IMG/VR virus record: IMGVR_UViG_3300042509_002293
Span: 1-64,000 of that record
Length of the DNA: 64,000 bases
From: a virus
Reading direction: 5' to 3' (one strand)
Below the pieces are notes generated by a model, which had not been told where the DNA came from, did no database searches, and was given only the letters and a program-made list of their open reading frames with translations. The position numbers and the translations under genes are program-made. Of this stretch, positions 10,957-52,951 are shown in pieces (within the stretch, counting starts at the first letter, position 1; every line of letters begins with the position of its first letter).

Positions 10957-11214
10957 ATGAATCTTGAAAGCCCAGTGACGGTCCTGCGAGGCGAAGATCA
11001 GGCCACGTTTTCGGAACTCGACCTCACCGTCATCGACAACATGGCGAGGCGGGTGTGCCTAGTTCGGTTCCTGGGGTTCACCAGACCTCTCGTGCTCTGG
11101 TCTGGGGCCTCTTATGAGGCAGCGGGCGACTACACCCAGGCCCAGATCGAGGCCAGAGTTCGCGAGATCCTGGGCGAGAACCCGGGCGAAGTGCTCCAGT
11201 CGCTCTATGCCTGA
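10957..11214 (+). CDS. Hypothetical virion-associated protein
   Basis: LVLWSGASYEAAGDYTQAQIEARV. Confidence 0.6.
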   Translation: MNLESPVTVLRGEDQATFSELDLTVIDNMARRVCLVRFLGFTRPLVLWSGASYEAAGDYTQAQIEARVREILGENPGEVLQSLYA

Positions 11215-11539
11215 GAGATTCAAGTTCTTCCGCCCCAAGAGGCCCAGGAAGCACAGGCCTGGGCCTGAATTCCATGTGGCCTATGGCGGGAAGAAATACT
11301 GGGCCGCCACCAGGAAGAGGATCCTGGTGAGGGACAACTGGCAGTGTCAGCACTGCGGGAGGGTCTGCTCCATGCCAGGGGAGGCCCAGTGTGATCACAA
11401 GAAACCCAAGGCCATAGGAGGGGATGATTCGGATGAAAATCTCCAGACCCTATGCCTGCCATGCCACTCCAAGAAGACCCGCGCTGAGCAAATGGCTGGA
11501 CTCCTGAAGCCATTGCAGCCAGAAGGGCACTCCAGGTAG
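11207..11539 (+). CDS. HNH endonuclease, HK97 gp74-like terminase cofactor
   Basis: RDNWQCQHCG...DHKKPKAIGG...NLQTLCLPCHSKKT, located just upstream of terS. Confidence 0.85.
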   Translation: MPERFKFFRPKRPRKHRPGPEFHVAYGGKKYWAATRKRILVRDNWQCQHCGRVCSMPGEAQCDHKKPKAIGGDDSDENLQTLCLPCHSKKTRAEQMAGLLKPLQPEGHSR

Positions 11540-12030
11540 CCCGAAAAAATCGGGGCCTTAGAAGTGAAGCCCTAGAAGATGGATTTCCCCTATATGGGTA
11601 CCCCCCAGGAGAAATCAATCCAGAACCAGAGATCCAAGATCCAGAGATCACCTAAGTCTATATCTACCAATGAGTTAGATATGGATTTAGAAGAGAATTC
11701 TAGAAGTCCAAAATCAAGGAATCATCAAAATTAACAGATTCGCGTAATGGGGGGGTCACTGGTTTTCCCTTTGGGTACCCCTATAGGGGAAATGTTTTTT
11801 TTGGTTTCCAGGGGAGGGGGATAGGCATAGCGGGCCAAGGGGCATTTTCCGGAAAAAAGATACTTTCAGTGGCCTGGAAGGCCCTGCTAGGCTGCAAGGA
11901 GAGCGGTCAGGACACCCCACCCGGAGGGAGTGTGTTCGCCGGCGAGCCCTGAGGCTAATTCGACGCCATCGGGGGCTTGCGTGAGCGCCTGCAAAAAACT
12001 GGGCCGGGGCTTTCCCGGCCGATTTTCAGA
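11540..12030. other. Non-coding region, AT-rich to about 11890; probable cos/packaging region
   Basis: Between gp74-like HNH and terS; low GC, homopolymer runs, GGGTACCC palindromes. Confidence 0.55.
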
Positions 12031-12033
12031 CTT

Positions 12034-12513
12034 ATGGGCCGACCCGCCATCCCCACCGCGATCAAGCTCGTCCGGCAGAACCCGGGCTGCCGCCCGATCA
12101 ACGAGGCCGAGCCCACACCTCCCCCCGCCGACCTCGCCCCGCCTCCGTCCCTGGAGGGCGTCGCCCTGGAGAAGTGGCACGAGATGGCCGCCCTCCTCTC
12201 GGGAATGGGCGTCCTCACCCAGGCCGACCGCCAGACGCTGACCCGCTACTGCATGATGCACGAGCAGTGGGACGCGATGGAGCGGCACTGCCGGGAGCAT
12301 GGCTCCACACAGATCACTTCGACCGGCTACAGCCAGATCACTGCGGAGGCAACTCTCGCGAAGTCCCTCAGGAAGGAACTCCTGGAGATTGAGCGTCAGT
12401 TTGGCATGACTCCGGCTGCCCGGTCATCCATGAAGGTGGCTCCGAGTGCCTCTGCCCCCCAAAATCCTCTTGCCGCGTTTGCCCAAAGCCGACGCAGTCA
12501 AGCAGGGGCTTAA
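12034..12513 (+). CDS. terS: Terminase small subunit (P27 family)
   Basis: MGRPAIPTAIK...NPGxRPIN..EP...AD...L.RYC...FGMTPAARS. Confidence 0.9.
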   Translation: MGRPAIPTAIKLVRQNPGCRPINEAEPTPPPADLAPPPSLEGVALEKWHEMAALLSGMGVLTQADRQTLTRYCMMHEQWDAMERHCREHGSTQITSTGYSQITAEATLAKSLRKELLEIERQFGMTPAARSSMKVAPSASAPQNPLAAFAQSRRSQAGA

Positions 12514-14118
12514 GTTCTACTTCGACGAAGACAAGGCCGCCCACGCGGTCCAGTTCTTCGAGCAGTTCCTGACCCACTCCAAGGGTCAGTTCGCCGGGAA
12601 GCCTTTCTCGCTCCTCTCCTGGCAGAAGCATGACATCATCGAGGAGCTTTTCGGGTGGATGCGGGTCGACACCGACACCAGGAAGTTCCGGGTCGGCTAC
12701 ATCGAGGTGCCTAAAAAAAATGGCGTCTTGGCCCCTGCGGCTGGTTGCCGTGGGGGCCAAGACGACCATCAGGAAAGTCAACTCTCCTCAGCGGCATAGG
12801 CCTCTACACCCTAGTCGCCGACGGCGAGCAGGCGGCCGAGTGCTTCGGGTGCGCGACAAGTCGTGAGCAGGCCTCGATCGTCTACAAGCAAATGAAGGAA
12901 CTGGTCCAGGCCAGCCCCTACCTCTCCGAGATGCTGGAGGTGGTCGACTCCAGGAAGACCATCGCCTACATCCCCACGAACAGCTTCTGGAAGGTCATTT
13001 CGAGTGACGCCGGACGCCAGGAAGGCCTCAACATCCACTCGCTCTGCTATGACGAGATCCATTCCGCCCGTGACGACAGGCTTTGGCGCGCCGTCCGGTA
13101 TGGTGGAATTTCCAGAGCCCAGAGCCTCATCCTCGCCATTACGACAGCCGGCGTGGACCGGAACTCGATCGGCTACGAACTGCACGACCACGCCATGAAG
13201 TGCCGGCTCGACCCGCACTACGACGAGCAGTTCTTCGCCTTCGTGGCGGCAGCGGCCCCCGAGGACGACTACCGGGACCCGGAAGTCTGGAAGGCCGCCA
13301 ATCCTTCCTGGGGCGTGACGATGGACGAGGAGTCCTTTCGGGCTGACGTCCGGGACGCCGAGCAGTCCAACGCCCGGCTCGCCAGCTTCCTCCGATACAG
13401 GCTCAATGTCTGGACACAGGGAGACGGCAACAAGTACATCCGGCTCGACCAGTGGGACCAGTGCAAGGGCCCTTCGGGGCACCTCGGACCCGAGCGGGTG
13501 TGGTACGCCGGCCTCGACCTTGCCCAGACCTGGGACTGCAACGCCTTCGTGGCCGTCAGCAAGGGGCCGGACGACGTGTTCGACGTGCTCTGCCGGTTCT
13601 GGATCCCAGGCGAGAATGCAGGCCTTCGTTCCCAGAAAGACGGCGTGCCCTACACGCTGTGGGCGAAGGAGGAGAAGAACGGCCTGACGCTGACTCCGGG
13701 AAACACCTGCGACTACTCGTTCATCAAGCGGGACATCCTCCAGTTCTGCAAGGAGCGGACCGTCCGCCTGATCGCGGTCGACCCCCACAACAGCCACTAC
13801 CTCGTCCAGCAACTTCAGGCGGAAGGCCTGAGTGTGCAAGGATTTTCACAAGGGTTCGCCAGCATGAACCCTGGCACGAAACTTTTGAGCACCCTGATCG
13901 CTCAGGGCCGCCTGCGGACCAACGACAACCCCATCCTGAACTGGATGGCCGGAAACGCGACGACCAAGGAATCCCCCGAGGGCTACGTCAAGGTGGTAAA
14001 GCCAAGTGCCATGAGCCCTCTGAGGGTTGACGGGATTGTCGCCCTCATCATGGCTACCGCCATTGCGAACGAGGCTCCGGCTGCGGTCGCTGCCGAGCCG
14101 GAGATCCTGATCCTATGA
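12446..14118 (+). CDS. terL: Terminase large subunit, split over two frames by a 50-nt hairpin in Walker A (exact start uncertain)
   Basis: Frame A: L..WQ...LFGW...YIEVPKKNG; frame B: GKSTLLSG...DEIH...ITTAG...ANPS...GLDLA...DGIVA. Confidence 0.9.
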
Positions 14119-17100
14119 GTCGAGAAGAGAACGCCGCACTCAGCGACATTGTCTGGACACCCGCACGGGGCGAGAACGAGCCGGAGCTTCGCAGCATCTC
14201 CTGGAACAACCTCCTCCTCTCGGACGAGGTGTTCGGCGGGAAGTTCCTGACTGCCGCCGAGATTCGGATCAATCCGGAGACTGCGCTTCAGTCGACCGTG
14301 CTCCTGGCCTGCTGCCGGATCCTCGCCGAAACGGTTTCGGTCCTTCCCCTCCACGTCTACCGGAAGCTCAAGAACGGCCACGAGGAGATTGCCGAGGACA
14401 TCCCCCTGGCCCACGTCCTCGGGTTCGCTCCCAACGGGTGGCAGACGAAGTTCGAGTTCTTCGAGCAGGTGATGATGAACCTGACTCTCTGGGGGAACTC
14501 CTACACCGAGATCAAGTCTGGCAAGTACGGGTCCGTCACCGAACTGAACAACCTGCACCCGAGTAACATGCGGGTCGAGCGGCTGGAGAACGGCCGGCTC
14601 AAGTACACCTACAACGACCCGCAGACTGGTCGGGCCCTGGAGTACACCCAGGATCAGGTCATGCACATCCGCTGGACGCCCCAGCCGGATGGCGTGAAGG
14701 GCATGATGCCCGTCGAGATCGCTCGCGACGCCATTGCCCTGGCCCGCGCGTGCGAAATCTACGCCTCGAAGTTCTGGGCGAACATGGGCCGCCCCGGCGT
14801 GGTCCTCCAGACGGATGGCGCCATCTCGGCGGAGACGGCCGAACGCCTCCGGGACAACTGGGAGCGAATTCATAGAGGCGTGTCCAACGCCTATAAAACC
14901 GCGATCCTCACCAACGGGCTCCGCGTCGAACAGTTCGGCGCCACGAATACCGACAGCCAGTACCTCGATGTAAGAAAATTTCAGGGCGAGGAGATCGCGA
15001 GGTGCTACCGGTTGCCGTTGCACCTTATTCAGGGGCAGTCGGGCGGCAACCTGGAAGTCCAGGGCCGCGAGTTCGTCGACTACACGCTCATGCCCTGGCT
15101 CGCCCGCATCGAGCAGGCGATCAGTCGGTCGCTCATCTACGACGACGCCACCTACAAGGCCCGCTTCGACGTGCGTGGCCTGCTCCGTGGGGACAGCGCG
15201 AGCCGGGCGAGCTACTACTCCACGATGATGGGGCTCGGGATTTTCTCGATCAACGACGTGAGGCGACAGGAGGGGATGGCCCCGCTTGGACCCGACGCCG
15301 ACAAGCACTTCGTGGCGATGAACCTCCAGACGCTGGAGGACGCGGTCAAGCCGAAGCCCGACCCCTCGCAGATGCCGGGCGCTCCGCCCCCCGCCCCTGG
15401 CGGCCCGCCGAGCCTGCCCGAGGTCAAGCCCGGGAAGGCTCCGATGGAGTCACCCAAGGGCGAGGCCTCGGTGAAGAAGCTCCCGGAGAAGGCCTCGGCC
15501 GAGGCTCGCGAGCTACTGCCCCAGGACGAGAAGCTCGAAGAGGCTCAGCAGGAGATCGCGGAGGAGGACGGGAAGTGGGAGAAGGAAGCGGCCCACTACA
15601 TCGAGAAGAACCCGTTCGCCGCTCGTGGCATCAAGTGCCACAACTGCACGCACTACTTCGAGGAGGCCGGGTGCAAGATCGTCCGTGGCCTGATCGCGGG
15701 CGACGCGATCTGCAAGCTGTGGGTGATCCCGCCTGAGAAGATCGCCCCGGAGCCCGAGCAGCGGGCGTTCTGCCCGACGGGAGAGGGCAACGGCATCAAG
15801 AATGACTGCTCCCCAGGCGGCAGCTATCCGGTGGCCGACTCTATGCCTCGCGAGGTCGAGGCTGGTCACCCAGCCCTCGCCGCGAGAGCGCCGTTCAGTC
15901 CGGTTCCAGAGGGCAGTGGGAACTCAGCCTTTGCCGTGCCTCCGTCTGACTCGGACCTGTCTCAGGCGTTGATTGGGTCGAACAAGACGAAGGGCACGAA
16001 GATCGGCAAGGCCAGGGAGCTTCCGGAAGGGACTCCTGTCGCCCTTCGCATCGACATCCCGGCGTTCAATCACTCAACCGAGAGGATGGGGAAGGCGGTA
16101 TACGCCATCACCATTCACGAAGACAAGGGCGGCAAGTCGTTTGGCAGCCCGATCGGATACGACTCGATGGCCCGCCTCTCCGGACCGGTCAGGTTTGAGG
16201 CGAAAGAGAACGAAGCCATCCGCGTGGCGACAGGCGAGTCCACGAAGACACCTCTCGCGACCGTGAAAGGCAAGATTTCGCAGGATCGCACGATCCCGAA
16301 GGACGTGGATTCGTGGACCCCTGTCGGGTACGACCCGAAGAAGGCCGCCTACTTCTACGACAAGAGGACCGGGCAGGAGGTGAAGAGCGGAGTCGACGCA
16401 CTGAGCGTCGGCAATACGGTCTTCACCCGCAGGCCACAGTACGGCGACCGCAACGTCAAGGAGCACTACCGCTCCGCCGACGAGATGTTCGCGAGCGACT
16501 CGTGGGGCCTAGAGTCCCGTGGTTTCTGTCCCACTGGAGAGGGCGGCGGGATCGACAACTCTTGCGGTCGCGGAGACTCGTCAGGAGGAGACTCGCCCGA
16601 CGGGCCCGAGCCAAAGCGTGCCTCCACTCGCGAGGTCCTCGATGAAATCCTTCGGAGCATCGAGGAAACCGGCGGATATTCGGTTCACCCAGTGACGGCC
16701 GAGAGTCCCACGACCGGATTCATGTGTTCGACGGTCCCAGGTGCCGAGAAGATTATCGACGGCAAGGATCAAGTCACCGAGGCGGTCGTCGACGCCTACT
16801 TCGATGAGCACCGGGACTACCTTTCTTCGCGGCCGAAGCTACACTTAGGTGGTTGGATTGACGGGTCTGACGGGAAGGTCTACCTGGACCTCTCGGAGAG
16901 GTTTGAGACGCAGGAAGAGGCCGAGAAGGCTGCGGTCGAGCACAACCAGCTTGCGATCTGGGACATCGCCAACAAGAAAGAGATCAGGATCAAGAATGAG
17001 CGAGCAGCCGAAGAAGATGGTGAGGTTCGACTTCAAGCCCGGCGCGACCTCGAAGGAGATCGCCGAGGCGATCGAGCGGGCCAGGAAGAAGGTCGTTCAG

Positions 17101-20100
17101 GAGTACGCCGAGGCGAAGGCCAAGGCGGATGCGGATCGCCAACTGGGCGAGTAGAGTCTCGCGAAGGCTCGGACTGCGGCCGAGACGACGGCGGAAAGTT
17201 CGGCCCTGGCAACAAGTGCCAGGAGGACGCCGGAGACGGCGAGCAGGAGTCCAGTGGCGGCGACACTGCCACTGCCACTCTGGCGCCGCCTCAGGTCCAC
17301 CCCGGCTCGCCGTCTCACGAGGGCCGCGTCTCTGCTCTTACGACCGGCTCCCTGCTGGACGGAAGCGAGCGTCTTGACGTCCCGACGATCCGTGGCCGTG
17401 TCCTTGAGACCGACCTGTCTCAGGCACTGACCCAGCGGGCCATCGCGGCCCACGGCGGAAGGGTCATCGACATAAACGACCGCGTGAGCGACGCGGACAT
17501 GGACGTCTGCTCCGACGCGCTGGCCGAGGATCTCGACCGGGCCGCAAAGGACCTCGGGCGTCATTCGGGCTGGTACTCCGAGGACGTTGGCCGGGCTGTT
17601 GAAATCGCCAGGAGCATGCCCGGGAACGAGAAGATCGGGGACGGCACTCGCGACGGCGAGCTTCACGACTTCGTTTTCAGCACGGCCCTCGGGATTCTCT
17701 CCCAGGAAAACACGGTCCCACAGAATGCCCGATACGCAGACGCGATGTATCGGAACTGGGTTCAGACCGGCAGCCTGATCATTCCCGAGGAACACCACTC
17801 GGCCCTGGGAAGAAGCTTCAACGCAAAGGCATTCGAGGTCGTCCAGACACTCGCCGACAGGCATGGGTGGGACGACGTGATGAAGTTCTTCTCCAAGTCC
17901 GACACTGTCGGGAACCTCGTGAAGACTGCCAACACGATGCTCCCCGACTCGCCGTACTCGCTCGGCGTCAGCAATGAACTCGTGTCGACGCGGGTGCCGA
18001 CGTTCGCGCTGTTCGGCCCCAAGATCGGCGCCTTCACCCATGCAGTCGCCAACCGGGAGCGAGCCGACGATGCTTTTGACTTTGTGGTCAAGGATCGGTG
18101 GCTCATGCGTCAGGCTGGCTCCATCTTCGGGACTCTCATGTCGCCGACGGACGGGGAGAAGTCGTCCGAGCATATGTCGAGAGTCCTGGATAGCATCAAG
18201 GGCCTTCGCACAGGAAGCCCCCTCCTTCACGGCCTGAGCGCTTCGGAGGTCAAGGCGAGCCTCCAGGAGGCCATCCGGCTGAAGACAACGCCGGACGACG
18301 ACTCCCCCGCGATGGAGTACATCCGGAGGACGGTCAAGGCTTACGCGAAAAGCTCAAGCTCGACAAACTCCACATACGCCGACAAGACTGAGCGGAATCT
18401 CGCGGCCAATAACGCCTTCAAGAACAGAACGCAGATCCTGATCGCCCCAGGGAACGGAACGCAGTCACTAAACCTTCACCGTCTCTTCGAGGAGGCGGCG
18501 AAAAAGTCTGGACGAGGTAACGTCTGCGAGGCGCAGGCGCTTGGGTGGGTGGACACGCAGCGTCTCTGGCAGAGCCTGGGCTATAAGCTGAAGACTCCGC
18601 CGGATCAGAATACGTTTAGCTCCGCGTTCTCTGCGCTCGCGTCCGGTAGGTCGGCCAGCGGAAGAATCACGGACATCGCAGCGGAGGCGGAAAGGCAACG
18701 CCGCGAGGCGGCACAGGCCAGCGGCAGGAAGTCTCGCCGAGACGCCACTGGCTCGGATGAGTGGGATTCCACCCGGGACATCAATGCAATCGGAGAGGAT
18801 CCGCAGATTCTTTTCAACGAGTCGCTGAGCGATCCTGATACCTTTAATGCGTTGCTTGAGCACATCAGCGCGTTGATCTCTCGCGACTCCTCGTCCGAGC
18901 GTCGCGCCTTCTGCCCCACCGGCGAAGGCGGCGGTGTGAAGAACGACTGCCCCCCCAGCGAGGGCGGCAGCGGTGGCGACGAAGATGACGACAAGGGCGG
19001 AGACATCGCAAAGGCTGACGATGACTCTGGGCCTCGCCCATCCTCCGGCCCCGAGATCAAGATCGGCGACAAGCCCGAGGAGATCGACCGCCGCCTGGAG
19101 GCTATGGGCATCAAGCAGGACGACGCCATCGGCATGGTGGGCGGAAGCCGCGACGGAACCTACGTCTTCGTCCGCCGCGACCACGATCGCGACGGAGGCG
19201 ACGGCCTCCACATTGAGACCACCCGCGACGTGGCCGGCGTGAAAGACGGCCTGTTCAGCCAGTCCGTCGTCTACAACGCTGGCCCGCCGCAGTCGCCTGA
19301 GCTTGTCGTCGATCACAAGCTCATGGACGTGAAGACCGACGTGAGCCGTGACCCCGAGAAGAGGCACGCCGCCGCTCGCGAGTTCTTCCGAATTATGACC
19401 GACAGCGTTCAGGAGTCGCTCAAGCGAGGAGTCTCGAAGATCACGCTCAACGCCGCCGGCGACCCCAAGCAGGCCCGCGACGGCATGTTCCGTGGGTACA
19501 CGATCTGGCCCCGGATGGGATTCAACGCTCCGATCCCGAACCACATCCGCAACAAGCTGCCGCCCGACCTGGGGCACTGCCGCACCCTCCTCGACCTCCA
19601 CGCGACCCCGGACGGAACGCGGTGGTGGAAGAAGAACGGCACGGACCTCGACGTCCAGCTTGACCTGACCAAGGCCGACAGCCCGCAGATGCAGGTCTTC
19701 GGTCGGTTCGTTCGTCACTTCGAGCGTGACCGCCGAGACCTTGCCTATGGGACCGGAGACGAATGGCTCTCGCCGGCCGACGAGGTCAAGCTCGACGAGT
19801 TGTGGCAGGAGGTCTGGGACGAGGGCCTGCTCGACGACTACACGGGCGAGGACGAAGACTTCAGGGTTTTGGAGAAGCGGGCCTTCTGCCCCACCGGCGA
19901 AGGCGGCGGGGTGAAGAATGACTGCTCGCCAAACGACGAAGGTGGCGGCGATACGGCCACGGCCCCCAGGCCGAACACTATGCCTAAGGCGAAGTACGAC
20001 GACCCCAGGAACAAGGAGTCGTGGCTGAGCACCGGAGGGGATTTTCACCCGTTCGATCGGGCGAAAGAGCCGGCCGATCGACTGAAGTCTCCGATCGGCT

Positions 20101-21284
20101 TCAATACCCACGACTTCTGGGCCAAGAAGCACGGCGTGGACGGCGGAGAGCCCGAACTGCTCGGCAAAGGCTGGATGCGGGTAACTGCTTCTGGCCGAAC
20201 GCTCTACCTCAGCAACTCCAGCGGCAATCCCCCGACCGATCGCCAGCGAAAGGTTGCGATTGACCACGCCATCGCGACGGACAAGTACGACGACATCGTC
20301 TTCGATGCCGGCTACGGCAAGCAGCCCAGGACGATCTGGAGCAAGAGGTCGAAGAAAGTACGAGGCGAGTCTCGTGCCTTCTGCGCGACAGGCGAAGGCG
20401 GCGGAATCGACAACTCGTGCGGCGCCGGCGAGAAGATGGCCGCCGACAAGGACTCCGGGGGCGGATCTTCTTCTCGATGGGGCGGGAAAGAGGAGAAGTG
20501 GGGCCGATCGAGCGAGACAGAAATCTGGACTCCGGGCAAGCCGCTCTTCCCCGGGGCCGAGAGCCTTGCCTCCATCAAGATCACGAGGCCAAACGACGTC
20601 CGGGGCATCATCGAGGACGGCCTGAAGATGAAGATTGCGGACGCCGTACTGGCCTCTGGCCCGGTAGCGGATTCCGCAGATCGATCGAGCATCACCCGCC
20701 CTCGGCTTGAGATTGTCCCAACCGGCCACGGCATCGAGATGCGGTGGACTTCAATGGGCGTCGCCACCGGAGAGGGCTTCAAGGGCGAGGAGGAGCAGTT
20801 CAAGAGTCAGCCGGGGACCGCCGTGAAGGCTGCCGCAGCCTCTCGCGACCTCTGGATCACGAATCAAGGGCCGGTCCTTAACATGGGCGGATTCTTCATT
20901 CATCCAGACTTCCAGGGCAAGGGCTTGGCGCTTGAGTCTGTGGCCAAGTCGTCGTCCTCGGGCGTCATCCGCATGGAAATGCAGGCCGAGCGATTTGATG
21001 CGGATGACCCGAATCTTCGCATGACCGGATACAAGGTGTGGCCGAAGTACGGATACGACGCCCCACTCTCTCTCGTCCGTGGGACTCTGAGGTCTCAGGA
21101 CCAGGAAATCCCCAAGGAATTTTCTGGTGCCAGGACTTTGGCCGACATTTTCCGCATGCCGGGCGGCCGTGAGTGGTGGTCCCAAAGCGGCGATTCGATC
21201 CGGCTCGTCTTCGACTGCCGCCCCAGAAGCAAGAGCGTCGAAACTCTGCTAAAATTGCAGGACCGTTACCGCAAAGGGAGGTAG
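14115..21284 (+). CDS. HK97-family portal protein (about first 410 aa) fused to about 1950 aa of cargo domains
   Basis: AC.RILAETVSVLPL...PN..QT..EF...GNSY...HIR...EIAR.Y..P..L...L.PW..RIEQ...LLRGD...NDVR..E; frame stays open for 2389 aa. Confidence 0.9.
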   Translation: MSREENAALSDIVWTPARGENEPELRSISWNNLLLSDEVFGGKFLTAAEIRINPETALQSTVLLACCRILAETVSVLPLHVYRKLKNGHEEIAEDIPLAHVLGFAPNGWQTKFEFFEQVMMNLTLWGNSYTEIKSGKYGSVTELNNLHPSNMRVERLENGRLKYTYNDPQTGRALEYTQDQVMHIRWTPQPDGVKGMMPVEIARDAIALARACEIYASKFWANMGRPGVVLQTDGAISAETAERLRDNWERIHRGVSNAYKTAILTNGLRVEQFGATNTDSQYLDVRKFQGEEIARCYRLPLHLIQGQSGGNLEVQGREFVDYTLMPWLARIEQAISRSLIYDDATYKARFDVRGLLRGDSASRASYYSTMMGLGIFSINDVRRQEGMAPLGPDADKHFVAMNLQTLEDAVKPKPDPSQMPGAPPPAPGGPPSLPEVKPGKAPMESPKGEASVKKLPEKASAEARELLPQDEKLEEAQQEIAEEDGKWEKEAAHYIEKNPFAARGIKCHNCTHYFEEAGCKIVRGLIAGDAICKLWVIPPEKIAPEPEQRAFCPTGEGNGIKNDCSPGGSYPVADSMPREVEAGHPALAARAPFSPVPEGSGNSAFAVPPSDSDLSQALIGSNKTKGTKIGKARELPEGTPVALRIDIPAFNHSTERMGKAVYAITIHEDKGGKSFGSPIGYDSMARLSGPVRFEAKENEAIRVATGESTKTPLATVKGKISQDRTIPKDVDSWTPVGYDPKKAAYFYDKRTGQEVKSGVDALSVGNTVFTRRPQYGDRNVKEHYRSADEMFASDSWGLESRGFCPTGEGGGIDNSCGRGDSSGGDSPDGPEPKRASTREVLDEILRSIEETGGYSVHPVTAESPTTGFMCSTVPGAEKIIDGKDQVTEAVVDAYFDEHRDYLSSRPKLHLGGWIDGSDGKVYLDLSERFETQEEAEKAAVEHNQLAIWDIANKKEIRIKNERAAEEDGEVRLQARRDLEGDRRGDRAGQEEGRSGVRRGEGQGGCGSPTGRVESREGSDCGRDDGGKFGPGNKCQEDAGDGEQESSGGDTATATLAPPQVHPGSPSHEGRVSALTTGSLLDGSERLDVPTIRGRVLETDLSQALTQRAIAAHGGRVIDINDRVSDADMDVCSDALAEDLDRAAKDLGRHSGWYSEDVGRAVEIARSMPGNEKIGDGTRDGELHDFVFSTALGILSQENTVPQNARYADAMYRNWVQTGSLIIPEEHHSALGRSFNAKAFEVVQTLADRHGWDDVMKFFSKSDTVGNLVKTANTMLPDSPYSLGVSNELVSTRVPTFALFGPKIGAFTHAVANRERADDAFDFVVKDRWLMRQAGSIFGTLMSPTDGEKSSEHMSRVLDSIKGLRTGSPLLHGLSASEVKASLQEAIRLKTTPDDDSPAMEYIRRTVKAYAKSSSSTNSTYADKTERNLAANNAFKNRTQILIAPGNGTQSLNLHRLFEEAAKKSGRGNVCEAQALGWVDTQRLWQSLGYKLKTPPDQNTFSSAFSALASGRSASGRITDIAAEAERQRREAAQASGRKSRRDATGSDEWDSTRDINAIGEDPQILFNESLSDPDTFNALLEHISALISRDSSSERRAFCPTGEGGGVKNDCPPSEGGSGGDEDDDKGGDIAKADDDSGPRPSSGPEIKIGDKPEEIDRRLEAMGIKQDDAIGMVGGSRDGTYVFVRRDHDRDGGDGLHIETTRDVAGVKDGLFSQSVVYNAGPPQSPELVVDHKLMDVKTDVSRDPEKRHAAAREFFRIMTDSVQESLKRGVSKITLNAAGDPKQARDGMFRGYTIWPRMGFNAPIPNHIRNKLPPDLGHCRTLLDLHATPDGTRWWKKNGTDLDVQLDLTKADSPQMQVFGRFVRHFERDRRDLAYGTGDEWLSPADEVKLDELWQEVWDEGLLDDYTGEDEDFRVLEKRAFCPTGEGGGVKNDCSPNDEGGGDTATAPRPNTMPKAKYDDPRNKESWLSTGGDFHPFDRAKEPADRLKSPIGFNTHDFWAKKHGVDGGEPELLGKGWMRVTASGRTLYLSNSSGNPPTDRQRKVAIDHAIATDKYDDIVFDAGYGKQPRTIWSKRSKKVRGESRAFCATGEGGGIDNSCGAGEKMAADKDSGGGSSSRWGGKEEKWGRSSETEIWTPGKPLFPGAESLASIKITRPNDVRGIIEDGLKMKIADAVLASGPVADSADRSSITRPRLEIVPTGHGIEMRWTSMGVATGEGFKGEEEQFKSQPGTAVKAAAASRDLWITNQGPVLNMGGFFIHPDFQGKGLALESVAKSSSSGVIRMEMQAERFDADDPNLRMTGYKVWPKYGYDAPLSLVRGTLRSQDQEIPKEFSGARTLADIFRMPGGREWWSQSGDSIRLVFDCRPRSKSVETLLKLQDRYRKGR
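16996..17154 (+). CDS. Overprinted small ORF (52 aa) inside the portal gene
   Basis: MSEQPKKMVRFDFKPGATSKEIAEAIERARKK reads as a natural protein while the portal frame here is R/G/E-rich, like an off-frame read. Confidence 0.55.
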   Translation: MSEQPKKMVRFDFKPGATSKEIAEAIERARKKVVQEYAEAKAKADADRQLGE

Positions 21285-50282: not shown

Positions 50283-50580
50283 CGAACTCGTCGACCTCGT
50301 GGAGCGGTGGGCGAGCGACCGGAGGATCGTTCCGAACAGCACCCCCCAGGCCCAGCTTCTCAAGACAGTGAGCGAACTCGGGGAACTCTCCGACGCGACG
50401 CTCAAGGGAGACGAGGCCGAGGTCGTCGACGGAGTCGGGGACGTGCTCGTGACTCTGATCATCTACGCGAAGCTCCAGGGGCTCGACCTCACCCACTGCC
50501 TGAACTCCGCCTACCAGACGATCCGCAACCGGCGGGGCACGCTCACGCCCGAGGGCGTGTTCGTGAAGGAGGGGGCGTGA
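50269..50580 (+). CDS. MazG-like NTP pyrophosphohydrolase
   Basis: WA.DR...QLLK..SELGEL...DGVGDVLVTL...CL..AY..I..R.G...FVK. Confidence 0.85.
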   Translation: MITFDELVDLVERWASDRRIVPNSTPQAQLLKTVSELGELSDATLKGDEAEVVDGVGDVLVTLIIYAKLQGLDLTHCLNSAYQTIRNRRGTLTPEGVFVKEGA

Positions 50581-51164
50581 GGAAGATCATCTCGCTCTTC
50601 CAGCGAAACTACGGCGGCGACCATCTCGTTCGGGGCGAGGTCGTGCCCGGGGCCGAGTGGGTGATTGCCGGAGAGGGCACCCCGACGCGAAAGTACGACG
50701 GGACGTGCTGCCTCATCAGGGACGGCAGGCTCTACAGGCGGTTCGACGCCAAGCGGGGGAAGTCGCCTCCCGGTGGGTTCATTCCGGCCCAGGACCCGGA
50801 CCCCGTGACCGGGCACTGGCCCGGATGGTTGCTCGTCGACTTCGACAACCCGGCCGACCGCTGGCATGCCGTGGCATCGATTGGACGCTCGCTCGTCGGC
50901 ATGGACGGGACCTGGGAACTGTGCGGACCCAAGATCAACGGCAACCCGGAGGGTCTCCTCGAACACCAACTGCTCCGGCACGGATACCCGCTAGACGACT
51001 GCGACGCGAGGGACTACCTGTCCATCCGGGACTACCTCTCAGGCAAGGACATCGAGGGCATCGTCTGGCATCACCCGGACGGCCGCATGGTGAAGATCAA
51101 GAAGCGGGACTTCGGGCTTGACCGTAATACGGATACGAGTACACTCTCGGCCGCTGTCCCGTAG
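50577..51164 (+). CDS. ATP-dependent RNA ligase, RLIG1/C12orf29 (DUF5565)-like
   Basis: Motif I TRKYDGTCC, GHWPGW, ELCGPKINGNP, IEGIVWH..DG.MVKIK. Confidence 0.8.
   Translation: MRKIISLFQRNYGGDHLVRGEVVPGAEWVIAGEGTPTRKYDGTCCLIRDGRLYRRFDAKRGKSPPGGFIPAQDPDPVTGHWPGWLLVDFDNPADRWHAVASIGRSLVGMDGTWELCGPKINGNPEGLLEHQLLRHGYPLDDCDARDYLSIRDYLSGKDIEGIVWHHPDGRMVKIKKRDFGLDRNTDTSTLSAAVP
51118..51145 (+). promoter_or_regulatory. Putative promoter for the Y RNA array and Ro60
   Basis: TTGACC-16 nt-TACACT ending about 10 nt before the first RNA unit. Confidence 0.5.
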
Positions 51165-51652: not shown

Positions 51653-52951
51653 ATGAAGCTCAACGTCGCAGACTACTCCCGCCAGACGACCCACGAGGGC
51701 GGGCCAGCCAAGCGGATCTCGCCCGAGCAGGAACTCCGTCGGAGCGTCCTCTCGTGCCTCTTGTGGGAGAAGCAGTTCTACGAGGACGGCCAGGACATCG
51801 CCGATCGCATCGAGAGTCTCTGCGAGAAGGTCGATCCCAGCGTGATCGCGGCCCTCGCTGTCGAGGCCAGGACGGCATTCCACCTCCGGCATGTTCCGCT
51901 CCTCCTGGCGTCGTGCCTCGCCAAGCGGGGCGGAGGACGTCTCGTGGCCGACACGGTCGAGGCCGTGGTCCAGCGTGCAGACGAGTTGGCCGAGATCCTC
52001 GCCGTCTACTGGCGGAACGGCCGGTGCCCGATCTCGAACGGCCTGAAGAAGGGCCTCGCCCTCGCGTTCACGAAGTTCTCGCCGTACCAACTGGCAAAGT
52101 ACAACCGAGACGGAGCGATCAAGCTCCGGGACGTCCTGTTCCTCGTCCACGCCAAGCCCAAGGACGCCGATCAGGCGGAGACCTGGAAGAAGCTCGTCGA
52201 CGGCACCCTTGAGTCTCCCGATACCTGGGAGGTCTCGCTCTCCGCCGGTGCCGGCAAGCGTGAGACGTTCGAGAGGCTCATCCGAGAGGGGAAGCTCGGC
52301 TATCTCGCCCTCCTGCGGAACCTCCGCAATATGGCCGAGGCCGGGGTCGACTCCTCGGCGGTCAAGAATGCGATCCTCTGCCGTGCCGGCGCCGGCCGGG
52401 TGCTGCCGTTCCGCTACGTTGCGGCGGCGAGGGCCTGCCCGCAGTACGAGACGACGCTCGACATCGCCCTGCTTGCGGCCATCTCGGAACTGCCGGCCCT
52501 GCCGGGCAAGACGCTCGTGCTCGTCGACATCTCCGGGAGCATGGACTCCGCATTGTCTGGAAAGAGTGACCTGAGGCGGATCGACGCGGCGGCCGCCCTG
52601 GCGAGCATCATTCCCGGGGACGTGCGGGTCTTCTCGTTCACCGACGCAGTCAAGGAGGTCCCGCCCAGGCGGGGCATGGCGGGGGTCGACGCGATCCTCT
52701 CGTCTCAGCCCCACGGCGGGACGTACCTTGGCCATGCCGTGAAGGCGATGAATGCGATCGAGCACGACCGGCTCGTGGTCATCACCGACGAGCAGTCGGC
52801 GGACTCCGTCCCGGACCCGCTCGCGAAGCATGCCTACATGATCAACGTGGCCTCGCACCGCAACGGTGTCGGCTACGGACGCTGGACCCACCTCGACGGA
52901 TTCTCCGAGAACGTCATCCGCTTCATCGCAGAGAGCGAGGCGGGCCGATGA
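51653..52951 (+). CDS. rsr: Ro60/Rsr (TROVE + vWA) RNA-binding protein
   Basis: THEGG.A, LW...FYE.G, YQLAKY, TWE..LS, ALLRNLRN, PFRY, DISGSM, GGT, ITDEQ, GFSE. Confidence 0.92.
   Translation: MKLNVADYSRQTTHEGGPAKRISPEQELRRSVLSCLLWEKQFYEDGQDIADRIESLCEKVDPSVIAALAVEARTAFHLRHVPLLLASCLAKRGGGRLVADTVEAVVQRADELAEILAVYWRNGRCPISNGLKKGLALAFTKFSPYQLAKYNRDGAIKLRDVLFLVHAKPKDADQAETWKKLVDGTLESPDTWEVSLSAGAGKRETFERLIREGKLGYLALLRNLRNMAEAGVDSSAVKNAILCRAGAGRVLPFRYVAAARACPQYETTLDIALLAAISELPALPGKTLVLVDISGSMDSALSGKSDLRRIDAAAALASIIPGDVRVFSFTDAVKEVPPRRGMAGVDAILSSQPHGGTYLGHAVKAMNAIEHDRLVVITDEQSADSVPDPLAKHAYMINVASHRNGVGYGRWTHLDGFSENVIRFIAESEAGR

Follow-up and report, generated by a model that had tools for sequence, protein, structure and literature searches.

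A putative translational bypass cassette in the Walker A codons of phage large terminase genes

The gene for the large terminase subunit (terL) in the IMG/VR virus record IMGVR_UViG_3300042509_002293 raises a simple question: how is the protein (TerL) made from a gene that is broken within the codons of its Walker A motif (P-loop)? The stretch analysed here, called the window below, is the first 64 kb (positions 1 to 64,000) of this 96-kb record, which is rated 98% complete. In the window, a 50-nt gap that folds into a long hairpin puts the two halves of terL into different reading frames. The insert is best explained as one copy of a mobile, terL-specific coding-gap cassette that lies in the Walker A codons and is not translated. 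The cassette would then comprise a 5' flank, a G+C-rich RNA hairpin of 18 bp, a short tail rich in A and C, and a codon that is repeated. Comparison of related genes suggests that these cassettes are probably a new family of translational bypass elements, with ribosomes skipping the gap as they do in gene 60 of phage T4. We infer that the gap is skipped by the ribosome and not removed by cutting and rejoining of the mRNA.

The split terL gene and its relatives

The frame of position 12446 reads ...RVGYIEVPKKNG up to the glycine codon GGC at 12722–12724. Beyond this codon it encodes non-terminase sequence and ends at the stop codon TAG at 12797–12799. GKSTLLSG resumes in the −1 frame at GGA 12772–12774, exactly 50 nt downstream of GGC. 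Removal of the gap restores VPKKNGKST, which is the sequence of uninterrupted relatives. The two frames, the positions of GGC and GGA and the distance between them had been described in an initial annotation of the window, and all of its coordinates and counts were confirmed. The features of the locus, all on the plus strand, are as follows.

12446–14118: terL, the whole split gene, with segments 1 and 2 around the 50-nt gap
12446–12724: terL segment 1, ending ...YIEVPKKN-G at the proposed take-off codon (match to the TerL of the relative L025)
12713–12720: A8 run in the Lys-Lys-Asn codons (AAA AAA AA), part of the 5' flank (from the sequence)
12722–12724: proposed take-off codon GGC, the Gly of Walker A GKS (sequence, comparison)
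12725–12774: coding gap of 50 nt, i.e., 47 nt plus the landing codon (its removal restores VPKKNGKST)
12724–12741: 5' arm of the conserved 18-bp stem (fold, covariation)
12742–12746: loop UGGUU (fold), without a zero-frame stop in the lineage of the window, unlike most loop types
12747–12764: 3' arm of the conserved 18-bp stem (fold, covariation)
12765–12771: A/C-rich, G-poor tail from the stem to the landing codon (fold)
12772–12774: proposed landing codon GGA (sequence, comparison)
12775–14118: terL segment 2, KSTLLSG... to the stop codon, with the remaining ATPase and the nuclease domain (Pfam)

Segment 1, whose start is probably the GTG at 12446, is 69% identical to residues 1–96 of the uninterrupted TerL of L025. 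Segment 2 matches the Pfam models TerL_ATPase (1.5e-17, model positions 33–175) and TerL_nuclease (7.3e-34). In L025 the TerL_ATPase model is unbroken over positions 1–175 and spans the junction, with a score of 103.5 bits versus 64.3 bits for the downstream part of the window gene alone.

The hairpin at 12720–12769 consists of 22 pairs with two G·U pairs, a bulged A at 12765 and a 5-nt loop, and folding confirmed the structure given in the initial annotation. Its free energy is −44.8 kcal/mol (z = −8.2), and none of 200 shuffled sequences folds as well. Eleven folded representative cassettes range from −37 to −45.5 kcal/mol. In all members the third base of the take-off codon is the first base of the conserved stem, with support from covariation. 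In several lineages including that of the window, lineage-specific pairs lengthen it over the take-off codon towards the tail; in the window, 12766–12769 pair with 12720–12723 and extend the stem to 22 bp.

The hairpin is present in one copy in its own genome. A stem-core DNA pattern matched 38 stretches in IMG/VR, of which 37 are in the Walker A codons of terL and one is a chance match. A dispersed palindromic repeat of the REP or MITE kind was rejected on these two counts. No family in Rfam matches the element, the best hit being a chance match to a snoRNA (E = 0.37), and the helix is continuous, without a bulge-helix-bulge. The element is therefore no known intron type; self-splicing group I or group II introns and archaeal bulge-helix-bulge introns were discarded for an element of 46–51 nt with one continuous 18-bp helix. 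An intein was discarded as well, since the gap is too short and holds stop codons or shifts the frame.

According to the initial annotation, an insert unique to this genome and lacking a functional TerL would have spoken against its proposal. Instead, the cassette recurs at this site in about 50 contigs that come from independent metagenomes, and the identical hairpin with A8 is present in many independent metagenome assemblies. The insert is no assembly artefact, and the gene that holds it is not dead. In IMG/VR, a protein search with the downstream part of TerL as query found 45 relatives, with 34–94% identity over the best matching segment. Twenty-six of them have the insert at exactly the site of the window, 13 read unbroken ...VPKKN GKST... 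(the most distant, L042, reads ARKN GKST), and two (L014 and L040) contain an intein in place of the hairpin. The matches to the stem-core pattern extend to TerL clades that are far more distant. Among 80 metagenome contigs sampled without bias, there were six further insert-bearing loci (L094, L095, L133, L134, L143, and L150), two inteins and about 70 uninterrupted genes. The insert is also seen in one GenBank contig of a metagenome-assembled genome (MAG), and the uninterrupted ...PKKNGKST... relatives include MAG copies. None of about 90 uninterrupted relatives has any residue between KKN and GKST.

Both sides of the gap are under purifying selection. Between insert-bearing relatives, the ratio of nonsynonymous to synonymous divergence (dN/dS) is 0.06–0.19 for the 90 codons 5' of the gap and 0.01–0.15 for the 430 codons 3' of it, at dS of 0.25–1.0. 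The values for the pairs WIN-L041, WIN-L071, and L060-L061, which contain insertions or deletions, are unreliable and were disregarded. Because of this selection and the unbroken Pfam ATPase model in L025, both halves are considered to be translated and joined into a normal TerL. There is no second terL in the whole 98%-complete genome, and terL is single in genomes rated 96–99% complete. A needed and functional terL is thus indicated by sequence comparison, and the proposal that TerL requires either bypass or excision is upheld by the conservation of the insert and the selection on both halves.

A dead or helper-dependent terL, either a pseudogene or a source of two separate polypeptides, is very improbable. 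Such a gene would agree with a frame that is literally broken, and gene callers would annotate two open reading frames (ORFs). This does not account for the purifying selection on both halves, for single terL genes in nearly complete genomes, or for a cut that falls within the P-loop itself. Besides, in L003–L005, whose hairpin is identical to that of the window, a TGA in the −1 frame stands just before the landing codon. As this TGA abuts GGC AAA, there is no start codon for a separate C-terminal polypeptide in cassettes of this type.

The hairpin is selected as RNA. In an alignment of 32 distinct cassettes (alignment A1), 97.9% of the cells of the conserved 18-bp stem are paired, and seven stem pairs have compensatory changes on both sides. 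None of 500 shuffles reaches the observed pairing and covariation, and sliding the partner by one to three columns lowers the pairing to 41–51%. These covarying inserts at the same position of related terL genes are what RNA-level selection, suspected from the window alone, had been expected to leave. The non-Watson-Crick cells of the stem are 69 G·U versus two A·C; the structure therefore holds on the mRNA strand and not on its complement, where pairing is 86.3%. The sequences thus point to selection on a sense-strand RNA hairpin. Between TerL pairs of 85–95% identity, the divergence of the stem is 0.06 versus 0.45 at fourfold-degenerate sites, and the stem core is conserved in sequence itself and not in pairing alone.

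The strand preference bears on an element of the opposite strand. The minus strand folds at −40 kcal/mol and continues with T8, i.e., it has the form of an intrinsic terminator for antisense transcripts, and the A8 flank travels with the hairpin. Such a function is extremely improbable: G·U pairs on the plus strand become A·C mismatches on the minus strand and reduce the pairing as given above, the AAT/AAC subtype described below has no T8, a terminator scan did not call the site, and the production of TerL would be left unexplained. Apart from any function, the terminator-like minus strand of 12713–12769 might hint at the origin of the element.

Reading frames, boundary codons and passage of the gap

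The distance between the boundary codons is 46, 47, 48, 49, 50, and 51 nt in 3, 13, 7, 1, 6, and 4 distinct cassettes, respectively. These lengths span all three residue classes, so that one frameshift cannot serve the whole family. Each of the 11 gaps whose length is in frame (48 or 51 nt) has an in-frame TAG, TAA or TGA within the loop, and many of the 47-nt and 50-nt gaps have a TGA that closes the −1 frame directly 5' of the landing codon. A zero-frame stop is present in 9 of 11 loop types, 6–7 codons past take-off, and a stop in any other frame in none. The zero-frame stops fit selection on the fate of ribosomes that enter the gap. They would be expected if non-hopping ribosomes need quick release, which would be most critical for in-frame gaps, where read-through would yield TerL with a disrupted P-loop.

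The window itself contains the A8 run and the open −1 frame that had been pointed out as a possible −1 route. The heptamer A AAA AAT within A8 lies directly 5' of a very stable hairpin, and A8 is kept in most cassettes. From the A run to GKS no stop closes the −1 frame, and its use would insert 17 residues (WRLGPCGWLPWGPRRPS). As the mechanism of the family this route fails, and simple frameshifting is excluded: besides the mixed gap classes and the loop stops, the −1 frame of L003–L005 is closed by TGA just before the landing codon, and A8 is broken in L036/L037 and absent from L060, L061, and L069 and from the AAT/AAC subtype. A narrower form, −1 frameshifting or transcriptional slippage on A8 in this genome alone, would give a TerL with 17 extra P-loop residues between KKN and GKST, where uninterrupted relatives have none. 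It would also place the stem 0–2 nt past the heptamer, versus the usual 5–9 nt. This form is highly improbable.

The boundary codons are more regular than the gap lengths. The take-off codon GGN is invariant in 31 of 31 distinct sequences of the GGN type, and GGN...GGN bounds the gap in 30 of these 31. The take-off/landing pairs are GGC/GGC in 23 cassettes, GGC/GGT or GGT/GGC in three, and GGY/GGA in three including the window; the rarer pairs are GGG/GGT (L051) and GGC/TGC (L030/L077), with one case each. Landing is on GGC or GGT in 27 of all 34 distinct cassettes, on GGA in three, on TGC in one and on AAC in three. The last three are related cassettes that read AAT...AAC GGN AAG, where the hairpin comes directly after Asn with no GGN between. 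As these Asn-site cassettes end their tail with a second Asn codon, the redundant codon moves with the insertion point. A single tRNA can read both codons in 29 of the 34 pairs; four pairs differ at the third base only and one at the first base. PKKNGKST is restored by one hop only, which starts at the Gly codon 5' of the hairpin and ends at the GGN 3' of the tail. A hop from the stop codon in the loop was considered and set aside, because by inspection no matching landing codon would restore the P-loop.

The tail between the stem and the landing codon is 4–7 nt long and varies in length and sequence among relatives. Its G content is 10%, compared with about 30% in terL, and GGN occurs once in the tails, a significant deficit against the 12–16 occurrences expected from gene composition. 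A G-poor tail therefore offers almost no premature GGN. No conserved Shine-Dalgarno-like motif is visible by inspection of alignment A1.

These observations can be combined in a bypass as follows. The ribosome would decode ...Pro-Lys-Lys-Asn-Gly, and the peptidyl-tRNA(Gly) on GGC 12722–12724 would confront a hairpin whose 5' arm starts within that codon. It could stall with GGC in the P site once the entry-side helicase reaches the G+C core, 8–13 nt downstream. The peptidyl-tRNA would then unpair, and the ribosome would slide past the hairpin and the tail without decoding. Refolding of the hairpin behind the ribosome may aid the forward movement, as proposed for gene 60 (10.1101/2024.12.09.627546). 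The tRNA would re-pair at GGA 12772–12774, and decoding would restart at AAG 12775 to give the normal P-loop VPKKNGKST. Ribosomes that do not hop would yield a short N-terminal fragment, which would end at the stop at 12797 in the window and at the loop stop in most relatives.

Several points weigh against this bypass. The window has GGC/GGA, and a tRNA with the anticodon GCC fits GGA at two of three positions only. Homologues of gene 60 show latitude for P-site re-pairing (10.1101/2022.08.31.505936), and the mobile byps of yeast mitochondria tolerate two-of-three matches (PMC5009743). The efficiency of bypass in the window may be low or may depend on the tRNA(Gly) set of the host; the whole phage genome contains no tRNA genes, including tRNA(Gly). 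L051, with GGG/GGT, and L030/L077, with the landing codon TGC, also deviate. The TGC stands in a 56-kb contig (IMGVR_UViG_3300042528_000130) and could be an assembly error. If it is true, the take-off codon must supply the Gly of GKS, and a mismatch at the first base is tolerated on landing. The codon after take-off is GUC, GCC or UCC (CUC, CCC or GUC in the Asn subtype), that is, neither a stop nor an obviously rare codon. A hairpin of 18–22 bp cannot fit the A site, so the mechanics would differ from those of gene 60.

Other objections concern the evidence for bypass. The redundant boundary codons could have arisen as a target-site duplication of 3 nt, and loop stops would be favoured by incomplete splicing too. 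The shortage of GGN in tails reduces to G-poverty (within-tail shuffle, P = 0.27), so it was dropped as proof that landing sites are avoided. Finally, the pattern that retrieved 19 of the cassettes has 19 stem bases fixed, and the conservation figures are biased accordingly.

A rival reading is RNA excision. The hairpin would be a tiny intervening sequence, a bacterial mini-intron, cut out by an endoribonuclease of the host or the phage, with the ends rejoined by an RNA ligase. In a fuller version, also doubtful, it would represent a new class of protein-religated intervening sequence of 46–51 nt in bacterial or phage mRNA, a prokaryotic parallel to those of HAC1 and XBP1, that is carried by a mobile cassette homing to the terminase P-loop. 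Selection on a sense-strand RNA hairpin is equally expected here, the conserved sequence of the stem core could reflect protein recognition, and the mismatched landing codons GGA and TGC would be irrelevant. The genome also encodes an RLIG1-type RNA ligase near a Ro60/TROVE gene, and the initial annotation had speculated on the involvement of this ligase. All five long contigs contain relatives of the N-terminal 95 residues of its ORF (50307–51161). For the catalytic part, a match was found in its own genome, the positive control, and none in four relatives of at least 90% completeness, two of them insert-bearing. The ligase was accordingly abandoned as a conserved partner of the insert. Because the tail is 4–7 nt long, a cut measured from the hairpin would not always keep the frame, and re-pairing at GGN would. 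Excision also gives no role to a second synonymous codon that shifts from Gly to Asn with the insertion point, and the continuous helix has neither a bulge-helix-bulge nor an intron or ribozyme match in Rfam. To our knowledge, no cut-and-rejoin splicing pathway of this sort is known for bacterial mRNAs. RNA excision is thus unlikely.

Mobility of the cassette and comparison with known systems

The cassette is mobile. In a tree of 114 distinct TerL sequences, the insert appears in at least six separated clades. Genes without the insert branch off within groups of insert-bearing genes, and the clade of the window alone requires at least three to four changes of state. The cassette passes from one phage terL gene to another by recombination, and about 20 nt of neighbouring coding sequence go with it. 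Wherever the hairpin has the GGN form, the flank is GAG GTG CCN AAA AAA AAY, and this EVPKKN-coding flank accompanies the hairpin also in remote TerL clades where insert-less neighbours use other codons or residues. For example, the clade of L133 reads YISTAKKSGKST(I/L)LAG, and L133 itself reads YIEVPKKNG, then the hairpin, then GKSTLLSG, with about 20 nt on each side of the hairpin of the type seen in the window. Compared with L169, its closest relative without the insert, L143 shows four synonymous differences, and these fall exactly in the four codons that precede the insert. The travelling flank looks like the outcome of co-conversion during homing or like a functional 5' element that belongs to the cassette, or like both. 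Next to the cassette, no endonuclease gene specific to it was found. The HNH endonuclease gene upstream was rejected as a cassette-specific homing enzyme, for it occupies the same place in insert-less relatives and no association with the insert was found, although it may still play some part.

Gain and loss of the insert could also be taken for removal at the DNA level. Slippage across the palindrome would produce insert-free genomes, which would make TerL and package all genomes in trans. A palindrome between 3-nt repeats is a classic substrate of precise deletion, alleles that lack the insert nest within insert-bearing groups, and L025 retains the AAA AAA AAT flank. This reading is quite improbable. 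The excess of G·U over A·C (69:2) favours RNA over a symmetric DNA cruciform, the insert persisted while synonymous sites became saturated, and the nearest insert-less and insert-bearing pairs are about 13% apart in DNA, with no within-population polymorphism seen. Rates of replication slippage are far too low to supply an enzyme that is required in every infection.

The same P-loop is the target of inteins. In L014, L040, L099, and L100, an intein is inserted between GK and ST (it ends ...THN before S), two codons past the hairpin site. The terL ORF of L040 (1945–4335, 796 aa) has a weak match to LAGLIDADG_3. As inteins and hairpin gaps share these codons, the Walker A codons of TerL are a hot spot for two kinds of selfish inserts. 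Both are removed from the same few codons without a change of the protein. Inteins are translated in frame over hundreds of codons and removed from the protein, whereas the hairpin gap has 46–51 nt, is untranslatable and holds stops. By analogy with the gene 60 insert, which protects against MobA, the gap may shield its site from homing endonucleases.

T4 gene 60 is the closest parallel to the proposed bypass. In both, a non-coding gap of about 50 nt (50 nt in gene 60 and likewise exactly 50 nt in the window) lies at an invariant Gly codon of an essential phage gene, and a stem-loop starts at the take-off codon, although that of terL is much larger. The boundary codons are synonymous in both, and take-off can shift one codon earlier: in gene 60 homologues from Gly46 to Asp45, GAU/GAC (10.1101/2022.08.31.505936), and here to Asn. 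In both, the gap is part of a mobile cassette that carries flanking coding sequence, as reported for the cassettes of gene 60 (10.1101/2022.08.31.505936; PMC5009743).

The differences from gene 60 are as many. Gene 60 and its homologues lie in genes for the large subunit of myovirus topoisomerases, the present cassette lies in the Walker A codons of terL, and the type of phage and the probable host phylum differ. No sequence similarity between the two was seen by inspection, no alignment having been made, and Rfam gave no match. The terL hairpin fills nearly the whole gap (18–22 bp, about −40 to −45 kcal/mol), and gene 60 has a small A-site stem-loop. Gene 60 has a stop or hungry codon after take-off, and the terL cassette has none. 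This difference and the GGC/GGA pair had already been singled out for the window, and both are present there. Unlike in gene 60, no conserved Shine-Dalgarno-like motif was seen in the terL cassette. Gene 60 cassettes carry MobA, and no cassette-specific endonuclease adjoins the terL cassette. Because the gene, the sequence, the stop after take-off, the span of the hairpin and MobA differ, the terL cassette would work like gene 60 and yet stand outside the MobA/gene 60 cassette family.

The byps of Magnusiomyces capitatus mitochondria are also short mobile blocks in coding sequence that are skipped in translation (PMC5009743), and they have many lengths and frame classes as the terL gaps do. 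They occupy 81 sites over many mitochondrial genes, compared with one site in one gene per phage genome here. They need an unused A-site codon and relaxed mitochondrial decoding; here the next codon is common and the host is bacterial. A candidate translational bypass in a large terminase gene is that of the Streptomyces phage Hau3 (PMC10732093). Its first insert is at the junction of ...GWG and KD..., a glycine-rich motif near the N-terminus as in the present case. The gaps of Hau3 are 7–10 nt long, are triggered by a rare UUA and have no hairpin over the whole gap, in contrast to the 46–51 nt of the terL gaps. Inserts like those of Hau3 were seen in 3 of 100 genes and proposed as a sensor of the host state, whereas the terL cassette is mobile. 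Full-text searches of the literature revealed no description of a hairpin gap of 46–51 nt in terL.

Long-range bypass is known in nature from few systems: gene 60 and its homologues, yeast byps, and the candidate 10-nt case of Hau3. If the present proposal is true, terL phages have reached an independent and evolutionarily successful solution, with one hairpin that spans the gap and no stop after take-off. With six lengths of the gap, two codons for take-off and several landing codons that do not match, the 34 distinct versions amount to natural mutagenesis, and the rules that govern take-off, passage of the hairpin and landing can be tested directly with them. For annotation, gene callers will split or miss terL in insert-bearing phages.

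Genome context

Two further genes precede terL on the plus strand.

11114–11539, plus strand: HNH endonuclease gene, 5' of terS (Pfam HNH, 2.8e-11)
11977–12513, plus strand: terS, small terminase subunit (Pfam Terminase_4, 1.2e-20)

The order HNH-TerS-TerL is common to insert-bearing and insert-less relatives, and the HNH gene is a packaging-type neighbour with no specificity for insert-bearing phages. The RLIG1-type RNA ligase ORF (50307–51161) and an ORF with TROVE/Ro60 and vWA domains (51653–52948) are about 0.5 kb apart.

GenBank phages contain no TerL relative of more than 40% identity, and their DNA does not match the cassette. Among genome bins, the closest TerLs (L084, L085, and L091) come from MAGs of Pirellulales and Phycisphaeraceae; they are 41–55% identical and have an uninterrupted P-loop. 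These distant MAG relatives weakly hint at hosts among Planctomycetota.

Many independent contigs with or without the insert (L004–L007, L010, L016, L018, L026–L028, L031, and L033–L037) end close to the start of terS, 0.75–1.0 kb 5' of the Walker A site. The shared ends may correspond to a physical genome end (cos/pac region). On the other side, the start of the portal gene overlaps the terL stop (ATGA). The portal is a single ORF of 2389 aa (14115–21284 of the window), and its long C-terminal extension is rich in repeated Cys-containing motifs (...RAFCPTGEGGG...).

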